Positions 6,123-59,256 of a stretch of DNA of 64,000 nt are shown here, in pieces. The notes below the pieces were generated by a model, which saw only the letters and a list, made by a program, of their open reading frames with translations, was not told the origin of the DNA and ran no database searches. Source of the stretch: Ginglymostoma cirratum (lineage: Eukaryota); NCBI GenBank assembly GCA_024137785.1, contig JAHRHZ010000038.1, forward strand, positions 12,700,050 through 12,764,049. Reading direction: 5' to 3'. Each line of letters begins with the position of its first letter. The stretch's first letter is position 1. A program made the translations under genes and the position numbers.

Positions 6123-6339
6123 TAAAAAAAAGCTGTGCATGTTGGAAATCAGAAACAAACAGAAATTGCTGGTAAAACTAAGCATGCATGGCAGCATTTG
6201 TGGAAAGGAAACAGAGTTAACGTTTCAGTTCTAGAACTACCAGTTCTGAAGAAGGGTCACTGGACCCAAAACGTTAACTCTGCTTTCTCTCCACACATGC
6301 TGCCAGACCTGCCGAGTTTTTCCAGCAATTTCTGTTTTT
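6123..6339. mobile_element. Palindromic PLE-derived element, family B, with hammerhead-like core
   Basis: Inverted arms aaacagaaattgctgg...cagagttaacgtttc / aaacgttaactctg...ccagcaatttctgttt. TSD gctcataaatgaat (6109-6122) vs gctcataaataaat (6340-6353). Core at 6246-6275. Confidence 0.85.
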
Positions 6340-7129: not shown

Positions 7130-9930
7130 TGCTTCAGACAAGATAGAGAGGGATATAAAGGGTGGGGAGGGGAGTTGCGTTACAAATAAGGAAGAATATG
7201 ACAGCTGTACTGAGCAAGAACACACTGGAGGGCTCATCCAATGAGACCATATGAGTATAGCTCAGGAAGGATGTAATCACTTTACTGGGATCGTACAACA
7301 GATGTCCCAACATTCAGCAGGTGAAAGAGGAACAGATATATAGACAGATGGTGGAAAAAATGTAAAAATAACAGGGTTTTGGGGTGGGTGATTTTAATTT
7401 CCCCTTTATTGACTGGGACACATTTAGTACAAGGGGTTTGGAGAGTGAGGGGCAGAATTTGTAGGTGTGTCCAGGATAGCTTTTTGAAACTATGTAAATA
7501 GTCCAACTAGGGAACAGGCCATACTAGACCTGATATTAAGGAAATGAATCCAGCCAGGGATCGAAGTTTCACTGGGGGAGCATTTTGGGAACACTCCCCA
7601 TAATTCTGTAAGTTTTAAGTTACTTATGGATAAGGATAACAGTAGTCCTCGGGTGAAAGTAATAAATTGGGGGAAGGCTAACAACCAACAAAATATTAGG
7701 CAGGAACTGGGAAATGTAAATTGGGGGCGGCTGTTAGGGTAAATCCACATCTTGCATGCTGGAATTTTTTTTAAAAAAAGGCTGATTGATTAGACTTCAG
7801 GACCAATATGTTCCTGTGAAAATGAAGGATGAGGATGGCAAGATTCGGGAACCTTTGATGACAAGAGAAATTGACAGCTTAGTCAAAAAGATTAAAAGGA
7901 GACATACATAAGGTTTAGGAAACTGAAGATAGACAGCAATCTCGAATAATACAAAGATAGCAGGAATGAATTCAAAAAAGGAATTAGGAGGAGTAAATGG
8001 AGCCATAAAATGTCTTTGGCGAGCAGGAATAAGCAAATTCCAAGGTGTTTTATACAAATATAAAGAGCAAAAGGGTGGTTAGGGGAAGGATAGGTCCACT
8101 CAAGGACAAAACAATGAACTTGTGTGTGTAACCAGAGGAAGTAGTTGAGGTCCTCAACAAATACTTTGCATCAGTATTGACAAAGGAGAAGGACACTATG
8201 AATGGTGAGTCTCAGGAAGAGTTAGTTGAAATTCTAGGGCATGTCAATACAAAAAAGGTGTTGAATGTTTTGAAAAGCATTAAGGTTGACAAGTACTCAG
8301 CAAGGGATAGAATCTCTCTCAGAATGCAGAGGGAGGGAGGTGAGGAAATTGCTGGGGCCTTGTTTGAAATCTTTGTATCCTCTTTAGTCACAGGACAGGT
8401 GCCTGAGGATGGGAGAACAGCCAACGTTATTCGAGATAACAAGCATGGGGCTGGATGAACACAGCAGGTCAAGCAGCATCATAGGAGCAGGAAAACTTGA
8501 CGTTTCGGGGCTAAACCCGAGATAATCTGGGAAATTACAGGCCAGTGAGCCTTACGTCACTGCTAGGCAAATCACTGCAGAAGATTAATAGGGATAGGAC
8601 TTACTCACAGTTGGAAAAATATGGGCTTATTAGCAACAGGCAGCATGGCTTTGCGTGGACAAGGTTATGTCTTTCAAATTTTATTGAGCTTTTTGAGAAA
8701 GTGACAAAGATGATTGATGAGGGCAGCGCAGTAAATATTATCTATAGAGACTTTAACAAGGCTTTTGACATGGTGCCTTATGGCAGGCTGAAGGTGAATT
8801 CACATGGGATCTGCAGTGAGCTGGGAAGATGCACACAGAATTGGCTTAGTCATAAAAGACAGTGAGTAGTGGTAATCTATGAATAGCATGTTCTGTAGGG
8901 AGCTGTGCTGGAACCCCTGTTGTTTGTAATATATATAATTGATTTGGAGGAGAATATAGCGGCCCCGATTAGTAAGCTTGCGGAAGCTGCAGATAGTGAG
9001 GACTGCCAGAGGATACAGCAGGATAAGGATAAGCTGGAGACTTGGGCAGAGAAATGGCAGACGGAATTTAACCCAGACAAATGTGAGGTGATGCGCTTTG
9101 GAAGATATAATGCAAGAGGGAAGTATACAGCAAATGGTAGAACTCTGGGTAGCATGAACATAGAGGGATCCAGGTGTACAGGTTGACAGTTCCCTGAAAG
9201 TGCAGCATAAGTGGATGAGGTAATCAAACAGACATGTCATGCTTGCCTTCATTGGTCAAGATATAGAGTATTAAAAAAAAACAAAATCGGCATGTAGCAG
9301 CTGTATACAACTTTAGTCAGGTAACAATTGTTGGATACAAGGAGATAGCAAGAACTACAGATGCTGGGAAAGGGTCCCAACTCGAAACCTTGATTCTCCT
9401 GCTCTATTGATGCTGCCTGACCTGCTGTGTTCCTCCAGCTCCACACTGTATTGACAATGCTGTAATAGTGTTCTGGTCACTGCACTACCAAAAGAACGTG
9501 GAGGCTTTGGAGGGGGTGGAGAAATGGTTTGTTTTCATTTGAATATCAAAGGATAAGGGGACAACCTGATGGAAGTTTACTAAATTATGACCGGCATCAA
9601 TAGAATAGATAATCAAAGGCTTTTCAGGTGAGAAATGTCAATTACTAGGGAACATAGGTTTAAGTTAAAAGGGGGTAAGTTTAAAGGAGGTGTGAGAGGC
9701 AAATTCTTTCACGCAGAGGGCGGTAAGTCCCTGGAACACATTGCCAGAGGAAGTGATGGAGGCAGATACAATAATAACGTTTACGAAGCATTTTGACAGA
9801 GAAAAGAATAGGCAGCTGGATACAGACCACATAAAAGCAAAAGGTTCTTAGTTTAGAAAGGCATCATGCAATGGTGCAGTTTTGATAGGCCAAAAGGGCC
9901 TGTTCCTGCGCTGTACTATTCTTTGCTTTT
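7130..9930 (+). mobile_element. Long CR1 LINE remnant (APE endonuclease, RT, 3' UTR), carrying two PLE-derived inserts
   Basis: ORF fragments VPEDGRTANV, QHGFAWTRLCLSNFIELFEKVT...IYRDFNKAFDMVP, WAEKWQTEFNPDKCEV; CR1 3' tail gggcctgttcctgcgctgtac at about 9900. Confidence 0.9.
8432..8518 (-). mobile_element. Half copy of the young PLE palindrome subfamily A'
   Basis: gagataacaagcatggggctggatgaacacagcaggtcaagcagcatcataggagcaggaaaacttgacgtttcggggctaaaccc is nearly identical to the arms at 14374-14459 and 40904-40988. Confidence 0.9.
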
Positions 9931-13940: not shown

Positions 13941-14339
13941 CGTTAGAGGTGATGTGGAGGTGTCGGTGTTGGACTGGGGGGAACAAAGTCAAAAATCACA
14001 CGACACCAGGTTAGAATCCAAAATAACAAGGTGTAGAGCTGAATGAACACAGCAGGCCAAGCAGCATCAGAGGAGCAGGAAGGCTGACGTTTCGGGACTA
14101 GACCCTTCATCAGAAATGGGGGAGGGGAAGAGGGTTCTGAAAGAAACAGGGAGAGAGGGGGAGGCGGATAGAGGATGGATAGAGGAGAGGAGGCAGACCG
14201 GTCAAAGAGGCGGGGTTGGAGCCAGTAAAAGGTGAGTTTAGGTGGGGAGTTAGGGAGGAGATAGGTCAGTCCAGGGAGGACGGACAGGTCAAGCGGGCGG
14301 AATGATGTTAGTAGGTAGGAGATGGGGGTGTGGCTTGAG

Positions 14340-14532
14340 AGAGATAAAAGGTACTGCAGATGCTGGAGAATCCGAGATAACAAGCATGGGGCTGGATGAA
14401 CACAGCAGGTCAAGCAGCATCATAGGAGCAGGAAAACTTGACGTTTCGGGCCTAAACCCTTTTCTGATGAAGGGTTTAGGCCCGAAACGTCAAGTTTTCC
14501 TGCTGTGTTCATCCAGCCCCATGCTTGTTATC
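14340..14532. mobile_element. Young 193-bp palindromic PLE-derived insertion (subfamily A')
   Basis: Perfect 16-bp TSD gggggtgtggcttgag (14324-14339 and 14533-14548), inverted arms, hammerhead core at 14464-14491. Confidence 0.92.
14464..14491 (+). ncRNA. Minimal type I hammerhead ribozyme motif
   Basis: CTGATGA-A-GGGT-TTAG-GCCC-GAAA-CGTC has all catalytic-core nucleotides, a 4-bp stem II, a palindromic ACGT in place of stem III, and a GUC cleavage triplet. Stem I is weak (UUU/AAG). Confidence 0.75.
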
Positions 14533-15889
14533 GGGGGTGTGGCTTGAGGTGGGAGGAAGGACAGGTTAGGGAGGCGGAGATGAGCTGGGCTGGTTTTGGG
14601 ATGCAGTTGGGGGAGGGGAGATTTTGAAGCTTGTGAAATCCACATTGATACCATTGGGCTGCAGGGTTCCCAGGCTGAATATGATTTGCTGTTCCTGCAG
14701 CCTTCAGGTGGCATCACTGTGGCACTGCAGGAGGCCCAGGATGGACATGTCGTCTGAGGAATGGGAGGGGGAGTTGAAATGGTTCGCGAATGGGAGGTGC
14801 AGTTGTTTGGTGCGAACCGAGTATAGGTGTTCTACAAAGCGGTCCCCAAGCCTCCGCTTGGTTTCCCCAATGTAGAGGAAGCCACAACGGGTACAGCGGA
14901 TGCAGTATACCACATTGGCAGATGTGCAGGTGAACATCAGCTTGATGTGGAAAGTCTTCTTGGGGCCTGGGATGGGAGTGAGGGGGGAGGTGTAGGACCA
15001 GGTGTAGCACTTCCTGCGGTTGCAGGGAAAAGTTCCGGGTGAGGTGGGGCTGGAGGGGACTGTGGAGCGGACAGTGGTCCCTCTGGAAAGCAGATAAGGG
15101 TGGGGAGGGAAAAATGTCTTTGGTGGTGGAGTCGGATTCCGCTTGGGAAGGTTGCAGGAACGGCAACTCATATTCCGCTTGGGAACCCTGCAGCCCAATG
15201 GTATCAATGTGGACTTCACAAGCTTCAAAATCTCCCCTCCCCCTACCGCATCCCAAAACCATCCCAGCTCATCCCCGCCTCCCTAACCTGTCCTTCCTCC
15301 CACCTATCCTATCCTCCCACCCCAAGCCCCACCCCAATCTCCTACCTACTAACCTCATCCCGCCCCCTTGACGTGTCCATCCTCCCTGGACTGACCTATC
15401 TCCTCCCCAACTACACTCACCTCTACTGGCTCCATCCCCGCTTCTTTGACCTGTGTCTCCTCTCCGCCCATCTTCTCCTCTACCCATCTTCTATCCGCCT
15501 CCCCCTCTCTCCCTATTTATTTCAGAACCCCCTTCCCCTCCCCCATTTCTGAAGAAGGGTCTAGGCCCAAAACGTCAGCCTTCCTGCTCCTCTGATGCTG
15601 CTTGGCCTGCTGTGTTCATCCAGCTCTACACCTTGTTATCTCAGATTCTCCAGCATCTGCAGTTCCTGCTATCTCTGAAACAAGGTTATAATCCAACATT
15701 ATTTTTATTTGAAATCACAAGGTTTCGAAGCGCTGCTCCTTCGTCAGGTGCACCTAAGAGGGATCGATAGGAGGCACCAGGTTCAAGTCCCATCTTCTTC
15801 AGAGAAATGTAATAATCTCCGACTGGGTTGATTTGGAAAATATTAGCTAATTTGATTATCTCTGTAATGAAAGAGTATAATCTCTCAAA

Positions 15890-16302
15890 AGTGTGGTTGG
15901 TTGGCTCACCGAGCTGGTTCGTTAGTTCACGGACATTTCATTACCCTGCTGGGTAACATCATCAACGCAGCCTCCGATGAAGCGCTGTTGTGTTTTCCCA
16001 CCTGGTATTTAAACTTTGGGGTCCGTTGGAATTGGTTACCTCATTTCAGGTTTTCCTTCGCAGTGGTATATATATAGGGTCTAATTCTACGTGTTTATTG
16101 ATGGCCTTCTTGGTGGAGAACGAAACCTCTAGAAATTCCCGTGCTTGTCTCTGTTTAGCCTGTCCTCGGATCCTGATGTTGTCCCAATCGAACTGGTGGT
16201 TCTCCCAATTCCAATGAAACGTCTGTGAACTAACGAACCAGCTCAGGGAGCGACCAACCACACCATCCACAACCCAAACTACAAATCTACTCAAAAACCT
16301 TA
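15890..16302 (-). mobile_element. Penelope/Poseidon-like fragment (GIY-YIG C-terminus plus terminal repeat with a short inverted arm), family D
   Basis: ORF 16046-16423 has HQFDWDNIRIRGQAKQRQAREFLEVSFSTKKAINKHVELDPIYIPLR. Inverted repeat gagctggttcgttagttcac (15911) / gtgaactaacgaaccagctc (16225). Degenerate hammerhead at 15932-15965. Confidence 0.8.
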
Positions 16303-29480: not shown

Positions 29481-29901
29481 GGATGTTTCACTCACCAAGT
29501 TAAAGAAAGGAAGGGATGTGATACATGTGTTAAGTTTCTCAGTACGTCACACATTTCAGAGACATACTCATGATATCATCACTGTTTTATAGTATGACCT
29601 GAGGGTATAAAGTTTTCAGACTTCATCTTACCATGGATCACGTGAAGCACACACATGAATAGAAGAATGCTACTCTTTGTAACTGAATAGCCTGTGAGGC
29701 ACTATTTGTATATTTTAATAAGCTGACATAAGTGTCAGTTGGATTTTCCAATGTCACATTACCCACATTTAGATTATGTTTCAGGAGGTAATGTAAGCAT
29801 TGCTGCACCAGATAGAGATGCCCTGAAGGAGGCAAAACATTTAGCAAATCCACAAAATGGGTAATTTCAATCTCAGTTAAACAGCAGTCCATTAACTCCC
29901 T

Positions 29902-31092
29902 GTGACCAGAAAAGTAGACAACGGTGAGTCAGTCAATGTTGTGTATCTGGACTTTCAAAAGGCTTTCGACCAGGTTCCACACAAGACATTAGTAAGGAAA
30001 ATTAAAACTCATGGTATCAGAGGTAACGTATTGACATGGATAGAGAACTGGTTGGCAGTCAGGAAGCAGAGAGTTGAAATAAATGGATCCTTTTCAGAGT
30101 GGCAAGCAGTGACGAATAGGGTACCGCAGGGTTCACTGCTGGGACTCCAGCTGTTCACAATATACATTAACAATTTGGGCGAAGGCATTGAATGCTATAT
30201 CTCCAGACTTGCAGATGACATTGAGCTGGGTGGCTGTGAGGAGGATGCTAAGAGGCTGCAGGGTGACTTGGACAATCTGGCTCAATGGGCAAATACTTGG
30301 CAAATGCAGTATAATGCGGATAAATGTAAGATTATCCACTTTGGTCATAAAGACAGGAAGGCAGCTTATTATCTGAATGGTGGCAGTTTAGGAGGTGCAA
30401 CAAGACCTGTCATTGAAGGTTGGCATGCAGGTGCAGCAGGCAGTGAGGAAATCTAATGGCATGCTGTCCTTCATAGTGAGAGGATCAGAGTGAGGATGTC
30501 TTGCTGCAATTATACAGGGCTTTGTTGAGGCCACATCTTGGGTATTCTGTGCAGTTTTGGTCTCCTACTCTGAGGAAGGACATTCTTGCTATTGAGGGAG
30601 TCCAGTGAAGATTCACCAGACCGATTCCTGGGATAGCAGGACTGACAGATGAGGAAAGACTGGATCAACAGGGTTTGTATTTGCTGGTATTTAGAAGAAT
30701 GAGGGGAGATCTCATGGAAACATATAAAATCCTGATGGGACTGGACAGGCTAGATGTGGGAAGAATGTTCCCGATGTTGGGGAAGTCCAGAACTAGGCGT
30801 CACTGTCTAAGAACAAGGGGTAAGCCATTCAGGACTGAGATGAGGAAGAATTTCTTCACTCAGAGTTGTGAACCTGTGGAATTCTCTCCCACAGGAAGCT
30901 GTTGGAGCCAGTAAATTAGACATATTCAAGAGGGAACGAGACATGGCTCTTGCAGCTAAAGGGATCAAGGGAATATGGAGAGAGGGCAGGAATGGGACAC
31001 TGAGATTGCATGATCAGCCATGATCGTATTGAATGGTAGTACAGGCTCGATGGGCTGAATGGCCTTCTCCTGCACCAACTTTCTATGTTTCT
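29902..31092 (+). mobile_element. CR1 LINE, 5'-truncated (RT to 3' end)
   Basis: ORF 29902-30456: VVYLDFQKAFDQVPH...VPQGSLLG...RLADDIELGG...WQMQYNADKCKIIHFG; CR1 3' tail at about 31000-31090. Confidence 0.92.
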
Positions 31093-33965: not shown

Positions 33966-34190
33966 CCCATAAATGGAAAGGCAATAGCATAGTGGTATTA
34001 TTGCTGGACTATTAATCCAGATAATGTTCTGGGCATCTGGGTTTGAATCCCATCACAGCAGATTTCTACACCATTCCTGATGCACAAGTGGCAAAATGCA
34101 AGATTATTTCTTCAAAATAAAGCCAACAGAAATATGACTTCACAGGTAAGACTCAGAAATACATACAACCATACATGTAAACATACATAC

Positions 34191-34393
34191 CAGAGGCTCC
34201 AATTCCCGCTCATCTGTCAAGTCAAACTCTGTCACAAAGTAGTAAAAATGTTTGTAGCAAGTGTTGACGTGGGCTTCTGCTCCCATGGCAGTAATCCGAT
34301 CAAAGTGGTGAATGTAAACATGAACAAAGACTCGGAAAAGTCGAGTGAGAATCTTCTTACAGAGTTGCATAAAATTCTTGGGGAAGGGAACAC
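34191..34393 (-). CDS. MOB3C: MOB kinase activator 3C, middle coding exon (203 nt)
   Basis: Acceptor ttttccatag|GT GTT CCC TTC CCC AAG; encodes (G)[67 protein letters not shown]; donor CTG|gtatgt. Confidence 0.97.
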
Positions 34394-36860
34394 CTATGGA
34401 AAAGGAGACAAAGTTAAAAATAAAGAGCTTTGTTGCCTCATGTACAATTTATTTAAAATAGTATAATTACTTTTCATTTTCCCTTTCTATTCATACGGGT
34501 GATTAAGTAACACAACTGCACTGCAGTCCCAGAGCTGCAAATTCAGATGGGAGTACTTTCAGACTATCTTCTTTAACATACAAAGGATATATAGTTTGCT
34601 GTATTTAACCATCTTTGTGCAAAGCGAGACCATGACTTACCAAAGAGGAGGGGAGGGTATGGAAGTAGTGGAAACATAGCCAGTGCGAAATTGTAGGAGT
34701 GGCAAAGTGACATAGGAAGATCCTACATTAATGTCACAGGCATACTGAGTGGGCGGTGGTTTTATAGCAATGATACAGGACAGGGTGAAAGCAAGTTCAT
34801 AACTTGAATAGAAATATAGTTCTCACACATTTCCTGTTTCTATTAAAACAAAAACTGTGTTTTGGTAGGGTTGTGATGAGCAAGTCACACCATTACTTTC
34901 TATAACTGCTGCCCAACACAATACCCATCAGCTTTCCCTCAATCACGAACATGTGCAGGATGTTCCACTAAATTTGTCAGCCTGTCACTGACCCAGCCAA
35001 AAACTCGAAGCTACTTTCGTCAACTACTCCAAGCTCTGCCCAAATGTCTACTGGGAGGAGGCAGAGATTGATTCTGACTTTTGAATCAATTGATATCACA
35101 AATGATAAACAGCACAGAAAAAGGGCATTCAGCTCAGTAAGTGCATGCCAATGTATATAAATTTCCCCTTGAATGCATTTATATTATTGATCACAATAAC
35201 TACTTGTGGTAGCCTATTGTACATTCTCACCACTTTCTGGGTTAACCAAAATTCTTCAGAATTACTCAGTTGATTTCCTGGTGGCTATCCTCTACTGCTG
35301 TCCATTGGTTTTACTCTCTTTCCCCATTCCCTCAAGTGGAAACATACACTGACCTAAATCTTCAGGATTCACAGGCATCAGAAAGAAGCTGGACAGTGTC
35401 CAAAGGTTCCAAGGTAAGTAGCGTGGCAGTTCTTCACCCTTGTTAGATCTTGGGCCCAGCAGCAAATTTTCATCACAGGTCCTTTCTGTCAGCCTACGCA
35501 GGTGAAGGTACAATAATAGGCTAGCCCTGTAGGAAGTCCCTTTCCACCTCTTCCACACCACACTCCTGGTGGCCTAGCTTCATTGTATATTTCTATATTA
35601 AACTTTATTAAGTGGCTGAGAGGTAACCTTCTTGTTGAACTACCCTCCACATTGCTTACCTAGTAAAACACCAAGTGGTTTCTCTGAAGCTGAAAGGCCT
35701 CTGATTGGCCCTCTATCTTCCAGAGCCTGCAAACCACCCTTAACTGGACAGGGAACCTGTCTCCACGTCAATTAAGGGTTCACCCATGTGTAATACTAAC
35801 TTTCATTTTACCAACAGAAGGAGATGGATTCCAAAAACAATTTAACTCCTGTTTCCCACTGTCATGAGGAAAATTCACCCCTTCGGAGTTGACACAATGA
35901 AACCTCAATTTTAAAGACTTCTTTAGGTTTCTCCTCACATGTTCTCTTTTAAAGAGAAAGGAGGTCTAACCTACTCACTGTTTCCTCATATATAACCCAA
36001 TGATTCCACTATCATCATCATAAAAATGTCTTGCATCCCCTCAAATCCCTCCCGGTTGTACAGATGTGTTCCTGAATTAAGAGCAGCTGTGGATTATTTA
36101 GCCCCTCTAGACAGTTCCATTAGCCAATAAGATCATATCTGATCTGACTGATTATGTCCACATCTACAGCCCTCACAGGGTGAGTTCCAGAATAGTACCA
36201 CTCTCTGCATAAAAAAAAAATCAACCTTACATACCCCCGTATCTCGTCCAAAAAAAAACATGCCTCCCACCACAGTCCTTGTACAATCAGCTAATGGGAA
36301 CAGCTTTTTTCTTTTATTGTCTACTGTGTCTGAAATGGTCATAATCAAGTTCACCTTGTGAAGTCTTCCTGCAACCTCCTTAGGTCAAAGGGGAACAACT
36401 CCAGCTTGTCCAACCTAACCTTATAGTTAAAAATCCCATGCCAGAAACTATTCTGGTAAACCTCATACCCTGTCAAGGACCTTCACATTCTCCGTATTAT
36501 GCAGCAATCAAAACTGGAAGCAGTAATATGTTTCCAAACCAGAGATTTATAAACAAACAGTCAGAAGTGATTTGCCTGTTTTCTACTCAGTACCTCTGTT
36601 TATGAAACCCAAGCTCCCATAGGCTTTGCCGAATGTTCTCTCAACATATTCTGTCAACTTCAAATATCTATGCACCTTAAACTTCCAGGTCCCTCAATCT
36701 TTGCACACTCTTTAGAGTTTACCATCCTCTGGTCTGAAAACAACAATTTGCAAAACTCCCTATTTTCTGTCTGAAATATGAAATGGTGAGTAATCCTAGG
36801 ACGTTCAAGGTCCTAGTTCTTGAACTTACTTCCCAAATCCTAAAGGTTTAGCTAACTAAC

Positions 36861-37556: not shown

Positions 37557-39495
37557 TGATTTCTGACTGCCTGTTCTACTAGACTGACTATGTCCTGTTG
37601 CAGTCACACCTCCAAGTTGATATTACTGTCAAATTTTGCTCTATTGCCCAGTATCTAAATTATTTACATAAAAGATATTAAAGCAATGGTCCAAGCACTG
37701 AATTTAGGGAACACCCGAGTTTATCATCCTCCGGTCTGAAAACAACAATTTACCACAACTCCCTATTTTCTGTCTGAAGTATGAAATGGTGAGTAATCCT
37801 AGGACGTTCAAGGTCCTAGTTCTTGAACTTCCTTCCCAAATCCTAAAAGTTTAGCTGAGTACCTCAAAACCTGACCTCTGCATCAATGGTAGTGTCGTGT
37901 ACCTTAATTTCAAACTCATTCCTTTGACGGTGCAGAATATTCTGCACCTTCACCATGAAATCCTCAACTCAGGCTCTGTGGTTGCAACATTCCAAGTAGG
38001 GCATTATGATGTTAGTTTGTTCCCCAGAGATAGAATCACCTAGAATACCTCCATTTCTGTGCTTTGTTATTCCTCCCTCTGTACTACTTTGTCCATTAGG
38101 GCCATGATTTTAACTGCATTCTCTCAAAACATCATCACCTCCAACAATCTCCGATACGGAGTATTGGCTTAAGGGTGGCATACACCCAAGGACATCAACA
38201 ATTCCTGACTTTTCCTATTCCAGCCATCTATTGTCCCGAACACACTCTTTTTGATGTGGTCACCTCTGGGACTGTAGAATCTGTTAAACACTCAAGCTCC
38301 CTTTTGTTTCGCACATGATTCCAGCTGCTCCTCAAGATTGGAAACTCTGAGTTCGAGCTGAAGCAGCTGGAAATATTTCCTACACATTTAGTCTCCCACA
38401 ACACATGACACGTCCTGAAGTTTCTATATGGCACAAGAATTGCAAGCAACAGTTTTCATCCATCCATGATCATCAATAGTTGGCACCTTGTTTAAACGAT
38501 CAATTTCAATTAATCCCTCCTCTGCTTTCTGTAAAAAGAAATGATTATTTACATCAAACATATTGTTTATGCTAATGAGAAAACCATATTACAACATGCA
38601 GATGGGAAAGTATGTGTAGAATATTAAAAAGTCAAAGATTTTCTCACCAATCTCTTGTGGAGCAAATAGTGATGATAAAGTTTGATTCATCTTGATTATT
38701 AGTCTCAAGTGTGAAAATGAAATATTACATTATCCTGTAGATGACATGTTCCATTGTGGCAATTATTTATTTCACTAATGACAGAAGACCAGTGTATTCT
38801 TGAGTTTTATGTTGAAACAAGGGAATTGAAGAAGATAGTTGCAGATGCTCGAAAAACATTTGGGAAAGTAATACCCAACAGACTTATTCAGAAAATAGGA
38901 ACAAATGGTGTTAAAGAGGCAATGGTAATTTGGCTAAGGAATTGGTTGAGGTATATGAGACAGTATTAGCAAAAATGTGTTTGTCTCATCAGAGAGATGG
39001 ATGCAATAGAATTTCACAAGAGTGGATCTTAGAACCATTGCATTTCCAGTAAAATATGTCACAAAACTCAGCAATGCAGAAAATGCAGAGTAGGATAGTA
39101 GCAGACTTCTGGAATCCATAGACAGATCATTGAAACAGGCAGAGGCAACTTATGGCAAGTAAATGTTCAGTGATGCGCTTTGGGAGATAAACAATGGAGA
39201 GATAGTAATCAGCACATTTTTGAGGGCAGTGAATGAACAAAGAAACGGAGGAGTGCAAATTCACTAATTCTTGAAGGTGACAGGGTGAGTTAATAAGACA
39301 GTTGACGAAGTGATACTTGGCTCTAAAAATAAAGGCATTGAATTCAAAAACAAGGAAATCATGCTAAAGCTTTAAAAGTCACTGTTCACGTCTCAGTGGA
39401 TATGAAATCATAGAATGATATGGAATAGAAGAACAATATGGAGTCATTTACACCTGTGTCAATTTTTTGGTCAAGCTGTCCAATTAATTGCACTC

Positions 39496-40098
39496 AGTTC
39501 GCAACAAACAACTGCACCTCCCAGTTGCGAACCATTTCAACTCCCCCTCCCATTCCTCAGACGACATGTCCATCCTGGGCCTCCTGCAATGCCACAGTGA
39601 TGCCACCCGAAGGCTGCAGGAACAGCAAATCATATTCAGCCTGGGAACCCTGCAGCCTAATGGTATCAATGTGGATTTCACAAGCTTCGAAATCTCCCCT
39701 CCCCCAACCGCATCCCAAAACCAGCCCAGCTCATCTCCGCCTCCCTAACCTGTCCTTCCTCTCACCTACCCCCTCCTCCCACCTCAAGCTCCACCCCCAT
39801 CTCCTATCTACTAACCTCATCCTGCCCCCTTAACCTGTCCATCCTCCCTGGACTGACCTATCTCCTCCCTACCCCCCACCTACACTCACCTTTACTGGCT
39901 CCATCCCCGCCTCTTCGACTTGTCTGCCTCCTCTCCACCTATCCTCTCCTCTATCCATCTTCTATCCGCCTCCCCCTCTCTCCCTATTTATTTCAGAACT
40001 CCCTTCCCCTCCCCCATTTCTGATGAAGGCTCTAGGCCCGAAACGTCAAGCTTTCCTGCTCGGCCTGCTGTGTTCATCCAGCCCCACACCTTGTTATC
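39496..40098 (+). mobile_element. 5'-truncated Penelope-like element, family A (GIY-YIG C-terminus, pyrimidine-rich spacer, hammerhead)
   Basis: ORF HSVRNKQLHLPVANHFNSPSHSSDDMSILGLLQCHSDATRRLQEQQIIFSLGTLQPNGINVDF. 17-bp TSD tccaattaattgcactc (39479-39495 and 40099-40115). Hammerhead core at 40020-40047. Confidence 0.92.
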
Positions 40099-40903
40099 TC
40101 CAATTAATTGCACTCCCCTTGTGTGCTTTCCCCTTGGTCTGATAATTTTTTATGGTACATTGGAGGAGAAGTCCTGAGCACCACACCTTAAAGAAGACTG
40201 TCAAAGCTTTGGTGAGGCTACAGAGAAGGTTTGCCAGGCTATTATCAAATTTTCTGATGTGGAGAGATTGGAAACACTGGAAGTGTTGTCACAGCAAAAC
40301 TGAAGGACAGGTGGAAACCAGATAGTAATATTCAGAATAATGATGGGTTTTGATAGAGTAATTAGGGAGAAAATGTTTTATCAGATAAGTAAGCCGATAT
40401 CTAGAGTTCAAAGCTAAAATAATTTGGCAACAGAATTAGAAGGGAAATCGGAAGAATTTTTGTCAGGGTAGTTGTGATCTGGAATGCGGTACCTCAAAAC
40501 AGTTGGTGAAATCAGACATAGCCACCCAGATCCCAAAACAAAGCTGCTGGAAAAGCTCAGCAGGTCTGGCAGCAAAACAGAGTTAATGTTTTGGGTCCAG
40601 TGACCCTTCCTCGGAACCTCTCTGGTTTTATAAGGTCACCCCTGAGTCTAAGGCACTGCGGGGGAAAAAAGCCTCAGCCTATTCAACCTCTCCCTACAAC
40701 TGAAACCCTCCAGTCCTGGCAACATCCTTGTAATATAGTCTGCACCCTCTCAGGTTTAACACCATCTTTTCTATAGAAGGGTAACCAGAAATGAACGCAG
40801 TGTTCTAAAAGTGGCTTCACCAATGTCCTGTACAGTGGCAAAATGAGGTCCCAAATCCTATACTCAATGTTTTAATGTATGGAGGCAAGTGGCCAAAAAC
40901 CTT

Positions 40904-41562
40904 AGATAACAAGCATGGGGCTGGATGAACACAGCAGGTCAAGCAGCATCATAGGAGCAGGAAAACTTGACGTTTCGGGCCTAAACCCTTCATCAGAAAT
41001 GATTTCTGATGAAGGNNNNNNNNNNNNNNNNNNNNNNNNNNNNNNNNNNNNNNNNNNNNNNNNNNNNNNNNNNNNNNNNNNNNNNNNNNNNNNNNNNNNN
41101 NNNNNNNNNNNNNNNNNNNNNNNNNNNNNNNNNNNNNNNNNNNNNNNNNNNNNNNNNNNNNNNNNNNNNNNNNNNNNNNNNNNNNNNNNNNNNNNNNNNN
41201 NNNNNNNNNNNNNNNNNNNNNNNNNNNNNNNNNNNNNNNNNNNNNNNNNNNNNNNNNNNNNNNNNNNNNNNNNNNNNNNNNNNNNNNNNNNNNNNNNNNN
41301 NNNNNNNNNNNNNNNNNNNNNNNNNNNNNNNNNNNNNNNNNNNNNNNNNNNNNNNNNNNNNNNNNNNNNNNNNNNNNNNNNNNNNNNNNNNNNNNNNNNN
41401 NNNNNNNNNNNNNNNCCCTTCATCAGAAATGATTTCTGATGAAGGGTTTAGGCCCGAAACGTCAAGTTTTCCTGCTCCTATGATGCTGCTTGACCTGCTG
41501 TGTTCATCCAGCCCCATGCTTGTTATCTCGGATTCTCCAGCATCTGCAGTACCTTTTATCTC
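40904..41562. mobile_element. Young palindromic PLE-derived insertion (subfamily A') spanning the assembly gap
   Basis: Perfect 14-bp TSD tggccaaaaacctt (40890-40903 and 41563-41576), perfectly complementary arms, and intact hammerhead cores on both strands (40969-40996 minus, 41436-41463 plus). Confidence 0.92.
41016..41415. other. Assembly gap (400 N)
   Basis: Run of n. Confidence 1.
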
Positions 41563-41583
41563 TGGCCAAAAACCTTCTTCACT

Positions 41584-41669
41584 GAGATAACAAGGTGAAG
41601 AGCTGGATGGACACAGCAGGCCAAGCAGCATCAGAGGAGCAGGAAGGCTGACGTTTCGGGCCTAGACTC
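41584..41669 (-). mobile_element. Single-arm PLE-derived insertion, family A
   Basis: gagataacaaggtgaagagctgg...ggctgacgtttcgggcctagactc; 7-bp direct repeat cttcact (41577-41583 and 41670-41676). Confidence 0.8.
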
Positions 41670-41848
41670 CTTCACTACTCTGTATATCTGTGACTCAACT
41701 TTCAAGGAACTGCGCACCTGCACCCGCAGTTCTTGTTGGTTGTTTGAACAGATGGCTGATTAATGTGAAATTGTGAACATTAGAGGAAGGGGAACATGTG
41801 TGCCAATGTTATTATAATGGTAAAAATGGACTGTCAATATTCAATTTC

Positions 41849-46382: not shown

Positions 46383-46527
46383 GGCGTAGTAGGAACTGCA
46401 GATGCTGGAGAATCTGAGATAACAATTGCATTTCTGAAGAAGGGTCTAGGCCCAAAATGTCAGCCTTCCTGCTCCTCTGATGCTGCTTGGCCTACTGTGT
46501 TCATCCAGCTCTACACTTTGTTATCTC
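46383..46527. mobile_element. PLE-derived insertion, family A (inverted tail plus hammerhead arm)
   Basis: 15-bp TSD taaa(t/a)aaatgggtaa (46368-46382 and 46528-46542); decayed core at 46434-46461. Confidence 0.85.
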
Positions 46528-51317: not shown

Positions 51318-52255
51318 GGGGCAGGATGCCAGCCCATTTGCTAAACCAGAAGATGCAGTGTCAACCCAGGAAAAATGTATTACAAAGGGCACACCGAGCA
51401 AACAGAATACCATTTAGAATGTTATACACAATACCTTTGAGACCTATTTGGCAGTCTATTTGTTAATAGAAATTCTCACTAACTCTATTTAAACAATGCA
51501 GATTATTTTAAATTTCTCAATTGACTATTGAATTCATCAACAACTGGTGTAAAGTTTTAATAGAAATTGTATTTTGGCCATTTAATTTTTTTTTGAACAG
51601 AAACTTTAGAAGTCTTATGATTCTGGAATTCACATTGCCAAAAGAAATTAGTAACATCTGGTCTAACCCGATTTTCTTAATCTCTCAATACTATGAACAA
51701 AATAAGAATTTTCCCGTTAACCATTTCTAAAACAGTACCTTTTCAGTTTGTTGATAAATATCAGCTTAGACTGCACAACAAATACAGCATTTTGTTCATA
51801 TTACAGCTTATTTTTAAAAAATACTCAACCTATTTACCAAATGTCAGTGTTTTATATTCTCTTAGTCAACTCAAATCAAGGGCTCTGGAAATAGTTATTC
51901 ATACAGAAAATGCCTTTTCATTTTGTTGTATTGCCATGTCTATATTTGTCTTCCCAGCGATGGCTGTTATTCAATTCAGGCAGTGTACTTTATAATTAAA
52001 GCTTGCCGAGTAACACTGGTTCATCAAATATTAATAGTGAGGGAGTTGATGACATTAAGGCAACAAATTAGATCACCGACTTATTGTTAGAACCCTGTCC
52101 GAAAGTGGTTTGTAACCAGCAGTTCTATTTCAATGGTTTTAAAACAATACATATTATACCTTTTAGTATTTAGCTTAATCTTCCAAGACAAATGTAGAGC
52201 TCATCATTTAAACTCTTCTATCAAAAATTCTTAATCTTTATCTCAAAAATCTTAC

Positions 52256-52673
52256 CAACACGAGTGGGGAAATTTTCCTCATTATTGATCAAGGCCTCAA
52301 TCCAGTCCATGAGCAAATTCATATATTTTGGAGCAGTCACTTTGGTTGGTTTCTTATACTTGTGTTCATCCTGCCACCTGTACTCATACTTCAGCCCGCC
52401 AGACATGACAGGACAGCTCCTTTCGGTGCAATACTCACAAATGGTACCATAGATGAGGTTGATACGATTGAAGAAATCTACAGTGTTGACTGCAATCCAG
52501 TCATTGAGGTTTTCCCCTGCAGGAAGCTGAACTACTGTCTTGAGATCGACACCAGATTTAAGTGAGGCCTGCGCCTTCTTAAAGAGCTCGAAGCGTTGGG
52601 TTCCAGGCTCAAACTTCTTTCGGGGTCGAAAAGTCCTGTCCTTATTAAAGACTTGCTTCAGGCAAAGGGCCAT
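52256..52673 (-). CDS. MOB3C: MOB kinase activator 3C, first coding exon (418 nt coding)
   Basis: [30 protein letters not shown]...NFPTRV(G). The [10 protein letters not shown]-terminus is characteristic of MOB3C. Donor GTT G|gtaag at 52256/52255, phase 1, matching the next exon. Likely acceptor tactgtcttacag| at 52832/52831. Confidence 0.96.
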
Positions 52674-53075
52674 CTTTCAGAAAGTACAGCGAGGTACCAA
52701 TCTCTTCCTTTAAAAAGGGATTCAGTATAAAAAGGGTTTGTTTCTTTCTTGGCTTAAGCTGATTGTATTTAAGAGCTTCAGATATTTTAATTAGTTTGCT
52801 CTCCACAAGTTGCTGCAGCCATCTGTGTATTCTGTAAGACAGTAGAAACATTTTGCATTCAATTGAACAGAGTCCAGTGATATTTTTTCAAGGTATCCAA
52901 TTGATTGGCATATCAACTCCTGGTAAAGCTACCACTTTGTCAGAACTTAAATACACCAATATGCAATTTTAAGGTACAAGTTAAAATGTTAACAGAGAAC
53001 ATTCATGTCTCATTGTCTGTCAGAACATAAAATAGACATGCAACCTGGTATTTCGACATTATAGACTAGACAATT

Positions 53076-58322: not shown

Positions 58323-58511
58323 TGTGATGTGGAAGTCCCAGTGTTGGACTGGGGTGGACAAGTTCAGAGTCACCAGGTTATAGACCAACAAGTTTATTTG
58401 AAAACATAAGCTTTCAAAGCGCTGCCCCTTCATCAGGTGCAGTCAAGCTCCAAAAGCTTTTGATTTCAAATAAACCTGTTAGGCTGTAACCTGGTATTGT
58501 GTGACTTTTGA
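58323..58511. mobile_element. Palindromic PLE-derived element, family C
   Basis: 11-bp TSD cta(c/t)tgtcata (58312-58322 and 58512-58522). Arms ccaggttatagaccaacaagtttatttgaaa / tttcaaataaacctgttaggctgtaacctgg. Minus-strand core CTGATGA-A-GGGGC-AGC-GCTTT-GAAA-GCTT (58408-58436). Confidence 0.85.
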
Positions 58512-59029: not shown

Positions 59030-59256
59030 AAATAAAAACCAAAAGAACTGCGGATGCTGTAAATCAGGAACAAAAACAAGGTTGCTGGAAAAGCTCAGCA
59101 GGTCTGGCAGCATCTGTGGAGGAGAAAACAGAGTTAATGTTTCGGGTCCGGTGATCCGTTCTGAGGAAGGGTCACAGGACTCGAAATGTTAACTCTGTTT
59201 TCTCCTCCACAGATGCTGCCAGACCTGCTGAGCTTTTCCAGCAACCTTGTTTTTGT
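59030..59256. mobile_element. Young palindromic PLE-derived element, family B
   Basis: TSD tccttaagttaac (59014-59026 and 59257-59269), about 75-bp near-perfect arms, core CTGAGGA-A-GGGTC-ACAG-GACTC-GAAA-TGTT at 59161-59190. Confidence 0.92.

Follow-up and report, generated by a model that had tools for sequence, protein, structure and literature searches.

The motif at 14464–14491 (+) of the window, the 64,000-nucleotide stretch of Ginglymostoma cirratum DNA analysed here, is a minimal type I hammerhead in the pseudo-LTR (pLTR) of a Neptune-type Penelope-like retrotransposon (PLE). Both the hammerhead and its host element are of already known kinds, the hammerhead kind having been described in 2014. 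Our explanation of the whole, to which we assign a probability of about 0.7, is that this particular copy is predicted to be caught in a hairpin, and that the family uses as its template a capped, uncleaved RNA starting at stem I. Positions are numbered with +1 as the first base 3′ of the GUC triplet, which places the core C3 at −28.

The sequence reads CTGATGA-A-GGGT-TTAG-GCCC-GAAA-CG-TC, as the first-pass annotation of this DNA had claimed. It consists of C3 to A9, an extra A between positions 9 and 10.1, a 4-bp stem II in which G10.1-C11.1 is G-C, G12 to A14, an ACGU stem III with the palindromic 15.2-16.2 pair, and the GUC triplet; the cut is predicted after 14491. Assignment to the minimal hammerheads of PLEs (min-HHR), which the annotation had made together with its description of an additional base following A9 and a palindromic stem III, holds under a sequence descriptor and the definition in PMC4209133, since the core bases C3 U4 G5 A6 N7 G8 A9, G12 A13 A14, A15.1-U16.1 and H17 are all present. 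The hammerheads of that report share with ours the core, the extra base between 9 and 10.1, G10.1-C11.1, the palindromic 15.2-16.2, a short stem I, the location in the pLTR and a predominance of solo truncated copies (PMC4209133). They were reported from fish Neptune, Poseidon and Xena elements, and an Acropora Neptune motif in the supplement has a layout identical to that seen here; the searchable supplementary files contain no mention of shark, Callorhinchus, Leucoraja or Chondrichthyes (PMC4209133). Stem I is formed by UUU at 14461–14463 (+), which is also the fold-back joint discussed below, and AAG at 14492–14494 (+), and thus has the roughly 3 bp estimated previously. The native young subfamily has a stem I of 4 bp (AUUU/AAGU) and the older subfamily one of 2 bp, against a min-HHR norm of 3–5 bp, and the predicted pairing of this stem is near 0 even in the native context.

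A pattern search of the window returned three exact matches and none in 100 shuffles. The search with a relaxed descriptor that the first-pass annotation had called for gave 37 matches in an unbiased sample (436 kb from two contigs; four of six random blocks were masked) as against 0–3 in each of 10 shuffles. Across the 4.36-Gb genome 55,970 exact matches were counted with none for the reversed-pattern control, compared with the ~4,000 and ~9,000 reported for coelacanth and Xenopus, respectively (PMC4209133). A scan with Rfam gave 12 matches at E ≤ 1, none of them to a hammerhead family; the matches were rejected as fold-back repeats resembling miRNA precursors, with scores below gathering thresholds.

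The coding part of the host element is best seen at locus L126, a relative of the ORF end that lies upstream of the hammerhead 14086–14113, where an ORF of 802 codons occurs with a reverse transcriptase (RT; Pfam E = 1.8e-5, below cut-off) and a GIY-YIG endonuclease (5.8e-5, above cut-off). Its translation reads DKG, YIDD and a CxxxxCxxC linker (CNRRKCYTC) before GIY-YIG, and two Cys lie inside the GIY-YIG core, in agreement with the CCHH/DKG signature of endonuclease-bearing (EN+) PLEs. The hammerhead follows the ORF stop by ~270 nt. At loci with the 5′ part of the element, hammerhead and tail are followed by 37 further bases and an ATG at +139. The remaining EN+ PLE architecture is likewise present, namely a pLTR with hammerhead, an inverted truncated partner, a one-sided tail of 30–40 bp and a target duplication. 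In these respects the element matches the Neptune EN+ PLEs described previously, with RT, CX2-5CxxC linker and C-terminal GIY-YIG in this order, 5′ truncation, an inverted pLTR, a 30–40-bp tail on one arm, target duplications and assembly trouble at the inverted repeats (PMC8557442; PMC3846280). The linker is common to Neptune and Nematis and absent in Penelope and Poseidon (PMC8557442). By its sequence motifs the element is hence an EN+ PLE of the Neptune/Nematis type; "Neptune-type" is meant here in the sense of motifs, not of a tree, and Nematis is possible. The ORF was not assembled at full length from any one locus. Round-sized assembly gaps occupy the centres of young inverted inserts (41013–41416 in the window and many other loci), which leaves fold-back joints under-represented and simulates long ORFs; apparent ORFs of 1,200–2,000 codons were rejected as runs of N. 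At three loci the open frames have the very same length, 1,049 codons, and are possible intact full-length ORFs.

The hammerhead at 14464 belongs to a head-to-head insert of 193 bp (14340–14532), of which it marks one arm; the insert lies within the UTR of an older member of the family, a position overlooked by the first-pass annotation. The insert is flanked by identical target-site duplications of 16 bp at 14324–14339 (+) and 14533–14548 (+). The left arm (14340–14461, −) belongs to the young subfamily, spans −22 to +100 and lacks CUGAUGA; its youth follows from its 100% identity to 41442–41563. The right arm (14461–14532, +) covers −31 to about +64 and has lost 23 nt between two CCTGCT repeats. 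For RNA reading through the insert, a hairpin of 66 bp is predicted (−129.2 kcal/mol, z = −17.7), in which stem II and stem I have pairing probabilities of 0.00. The core is intact as claimed, while the hammerhead fold is predicted to be impossible in read-through RNA, and the copy is probably inactive because the hairpin would remove both stems and the facing arm lacks CUGAUGA. That it nevertheless acts as a dimer-cleaving ribozyme within the host transcript is very improbable. The core bases are complete, the 3-bp stem I is intact and the right arm folded alone retains stem II (p about 0.75), as such activity would need; against it stand the predicted pairing of the arms over 66 bp, the facing arm that offers no dimer partner, and the fact that the copy is one among tens of thousands of unselected copies. 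The statement in the first-pass annotation that such motifs have been shown to cleave as dimers goes further than the published results considered here: for the PLE min-HHR low activity of dimers and trimers and none of monomers was reported (PMC4209133), and the hammerhead of the Poseidon element of Anolis did not cleave without the element protein (PMC11167929). The insert is head-to-head and solitary, and the head-to-tail tandem units with a hammerhead in each that characterize non-LTR retrozymes (10.64898/2026.07.22.740005) are not found in it. The same −22/−31 fold-back joint occurs twice within 20 kb, at 14440–14467 and ~19.5 kb earlier (L040), and represents either a hotspot or a copied passenger element.

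Every copy listed in the first-pass annotation is present in the sequence. The host copy of the focal insert, delimited by sequence comparison and Pfam at 14013–15105 (−), is 5′-truncated and contains the end of the ORF (Cys-rich linker and GIY-YIG, the latter with a Pfam E = 0.0012, below cut-off), a pyrimidine-rich UTR, the hammerhead 14086–14113 (−) and the tail. Its inverted partner (15147–15677, +) carries the decayed hammerhead 15549–15576 and has its 3′ end at +101. Another 5′-truncated copy (39492–40100, +) holds the hammerhead 40020–40047. Both 14086–14113 and 40020–40047 had been listed as recurrences of the motif and retain the core, but in each of them a single pair of stem II is broken. 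The motifs at 40969–40996 (−) and 41436–41463 (+) are likewise real, yet they are two arms of one insertion around an assembly gap and not separate copies; this second young head-to-head insert (40904–41564) is flanked by a 13-bp target duplication, and both of its arms extend to −32/−33 with a single G separating them. An old fold-back stub at 46387–46527 begins with G-C(−33) and includes the decayed hammerhead 46434–46461. The CpG decay proposed for 15549–15576 and 46434–46461 was confirmed as a G12>A change in both, with an additional CG>TG in stem III at 46434; the CTGAAGA of these two copies reflects subfamily variation at position 7, which is free to vary, and not decay. Truncated copies at 8499–8526 (−), 14440–14467 (−) and 41650–41677 (−) add to the earlier list. 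At 41439–41483 (+) the CTGATGA of the young subfamily provides the ATG of a 14-codon upstream ORF, which the older CTGAAGA variant lacks.

The ends of the copies are the main evidence on the template. At the 3′ side they cluster near +66 or +100, and all 12 rows of an inverted-pair table combine one long with one short arm, one row being a non-adjacent, untrue pair; this pairing matches the two RT start sites reported for Poseidon (PMC11167929), and a one-sided tail of 30–40 bp is a published PLE trait (PMC3846280). For the 5′ side, the unbiased sample of 436 kb provided 66 anchored copies, of which 59 were left after dropping seven that abut assembly gaps. Twelve of the 59 end at −33 to −31, i.e. 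3–5 nt before the core, 16 at −29 to −3 and nine at +4 to +21; 22 end farther upstream, some of these representing alignment breakdown in old copies. None ends at −2 to +3, so the predicted cut after GUC, where the first-pass annotation had proposed to map RNA ends, leaves no pile of genomic copy ends. Genome-wide, departures from the consensus, which pool truncations with point mutations, numbered 6,205 of 48,225 exact matches before A(−32), 4,335 of 42,020 before C(−33) and 1,831 of 37,685 before C(−34). The preceding base was tallied by hand in the first 100 matches listed, which are the earliest positions on the first contigs and may count the two arms of one insertion twice. The G/A/T proportions were 55/33/12 before A(−32), 38/15/47 before C(−33), 23/28/49 at the control before C(−34) and 20/46/34 at the cut. 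G is thus in excess before −32 relative to the control (55/100 vs 23/100 among these first matches; Fisher p = 6e-6). Some of the T's before −33 represent the G joint seen from the opposite strand, as at 40969/41436. Among loci of the local set with readable flanks, a G precedes five of the seven ends at −32, with unrelated sequence upstream. In the sister family with CAGTT before the core (1,074 matches), the proportions at the same register were 44/44/12 in the first 100 listed, and the G at −33 could be a templated variant lengthening stem I. A 3′ splice site was rejected as the cause of the −32 ends, as there is no AG before −32 and no end at the upstream TTTCAG.

The RNA data comprise two raw-read runs under the same species label, a deep one that is apparently unstranded and dominated by read-through (78–93% of placed reads continue into unlike sequence) and a second one with 36 and 8 reads. 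In these two runs, which were given no weight in either direction, no pile of molecule starts was seen at −32 or at the cut. Nine of the 14 opposite-strand joints shown for the deep run involve −35 to −31, the commonest fold-back class; these read joints reflect genomic copies and not start sites. The listed holders of the motif include no RNA record.

The cluster at −33 to −31 might be a joining artefact instead of an RNA start, arising where the RT slips or stalls at AUUU before the C-run and where cDNA ends pair with one another or with AT-rich targets. Many −31 ends indeed carry extra T's, which slippage or microhomology can explain, or palindromic GAAATTTC joints; an A precedes −32 in 33 of the first 100 matches listed, and a PLE endonuclease is reported to cut AT-rich sites (PMC11167929). 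Yet the commonest base in those 100 is G and not A or T, T accounting for only 12, and a longer AT-rich run ~55–65 nt upstream is without ends (0/59). Moreover, copies that span the ORF start stop at −31/−32 as well: of seven loci with the ORF N-terminus two also hold the hammerhead, and both begin there. We consider this alternative unlikely, while granting it some weight. Less probable again is the model of Cervera and de la Pena (2014), by which the hammerhead would cut tandem transcripts to unit length, the unit RNAs then being copied either as they are or once circularised. It would account for the core being kept across subfamilies, for the involvement of +5/+6 in several fold-back joints and for departures at +1 being 2.6-fold those at −1 (2,004 vs 773), an excess that leaves possible room for some cleaved templates but is inflated, since fold-backs at the AAGCTT palindrome and A-rich flanks fall into the +1 class. 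It is opposed by the lack of ends at the cut among the 59 sampled, and by the G at −32, which a ligated circle, having no end there, would not add.

A further alternative, which we regard as doubtful and place between these two in likelihood, is that cleavage has been lost in this lineage, the motif being retained as a promoter or protein-binding element. It was weighed on 77 copies chosen by tail or ORF and not by the motif, all spanning it and tallied per column, with variants in 8% or more of copies regarded as shared at the level of lineages; CpG core positions were excluded, and position −32 was omitted from the non-core count since its variants are truncations. Shared variants affected none of 11 non-CpG core positions and seven of 20 other hammerhead positions (p = 0.03), but in the tail from +5 to +20 only two of 16 positions vary (p = 0.5), so that the excess conservation of the core suggested as a test in the first-pass annotation is weakly seen relative to the rest of the hammerhead and not relative to the nearby tail. 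The latter comparison would suit a non-cleaving motif, as would a stem I of just 2–4 bp, a double-hammerhead fold of −5.3 vs −28.8 kcal/mol for the best dimer fold, and the success of Naiad PLEs without canonical hammerheads (PMC8557442). Conversely, the shared variants are confined to positions that hammerheads tolerate (N7, three loop II bases, 11.4 with U.G to U-A, and the 3′ strand of stem I), and stem I covaries between families (AUUU/AAGU, AGUU/AACU, GAGCU/AGCUC and UGCA/UGCA). Decay of individual copies occurs mostly at CpG sites, as in neutral copies. A per-cell conservation test (p = 3e-22) was discarded because copies share ancestry. Taken by sequence, the support for selection on the hammerhead core in master lineages is weak to moderate.

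Returning to a capped, uncleaved template, we infer from the ends and the excess of G that a promoter in the upstream partial copy would launch a capped RNA at the A of CC-A-TTTC. This A lies four bases before C3, and its surroundings presumably fit the initiator consensus. The hammerhead would then fill the first ~36 nt of the RNA, upstream of the ORF ATG at +139. The element protein would prime reverse transcription within the RNA at +66 and +100, one for each cut target strand. Where the 5′ copy of these sites is used, the RT would cross the uncleaved hammerhead to the cap and copy the latter as an extra base; such run-off would give stubs of 100–133 bp, and two of these cDNAs joined head to head would produce inserts like 14340–14532. 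Untemplated 5′ G in L1 and SVA has been ascribed to copying of the cap (PMC3287187). The ribozyme would probably cut rarely, as a dimer or with help from protein, and a cut would strip the capped 32-nt leader.

Similar to this scheme, the Poseidon element of Anolis carolinensis has two internal sites of RT initiation, which set the limits of the tail, cuts and extends both strands, and uses uncleaved RNA as substrate; its hammerhead cleaves only with the element protein, and cleavage is not needed in vitro (PMC11167929). In contrast to the ATG at +139 here, the Poseidon ORF begins inside the hammerhead, and the accessible part of that study reports neither a start site nor cap copying (PMC11167929). 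Penelope of Drosophila virilis likewise has a promoter and initiator within the pLTR of the upstream partner, but transcription starts 46 bp upstream of an intron of 75 bp extending to stem I of the hammerhead (PMC2377424), whereas the start proposed here falls on stem I itself, with no evident intron. Head-to-head joints have been explained through self-priming on an antisense template (PMC3846280); the putatively cap-derived G points to a sense template. The rotifer pLTR holds an Inr-like sequence, for which the accessible text gives no mapped start (PMC3846280), and the portion of PMC4209133 available describes no start site or cap signal. In the literature searched, whose coverage excluded most subscription papers, Repbase notes and one supplement of PMC4209133, no printed account of the start and cap proposed here was found.

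The ends of the family yield a precise prediction, namely that capped transcripts begin 32 nt upstream of the cut site. Confirmation would count against the cleave-and-circularise and antisense-template models and suggest that the ribozyme is a decapping switch, in a field where the role of PLE hammerheads is stated to be unclear (PMC8557442). More tentatively, initiator and stem I may be the same bases and the ribozyme the first 36 nt of the RNA, so that a protein-triggered cut would drop the 32-nt capped leader and end translation of the protein-bound RNA; about ten thousand stubs would then map the promoter and reveal a sense, uncleaved template. The family, young and highly amplified, may in addition provide a second PLE that works in vitro.

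The window additionally holds two coding exons of a Mob1/phocein-family gene at 52224–52676 (−) and about 34190–34395 (−) (Pfam E = 2e-42), which we take to be MOB3-like; its last exon was not found in a search around the window. By these exons the genome looks vertebrate-like. At 29896–30456 (+) lies a piece of an unrelated LINE-type reverse transcriptase (RVT_1 E = 1e-22), presumably CR1-like. Three further types of hammerhead were noted. Minimal hammerheads of the sister family occur at 6246–6275 (+) and 59161–59190 (+), with stem I AGUU/AACU, a 5-bp stem II and a GUU triplet, and 59110–59216 is a fold-back insert. A third type at 15932–15965 (−) has an extra U and a 7-bp stem II and is decayed; intact relatives with UGCA/UGCA as stem I were found at other loci. 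Lastly, a fourth type, also decayed, is represented at 15719–15747 (−) and 58408–58436 (−), with AGCU as the palindrome of stem III and a stem II of the GGAGC type.
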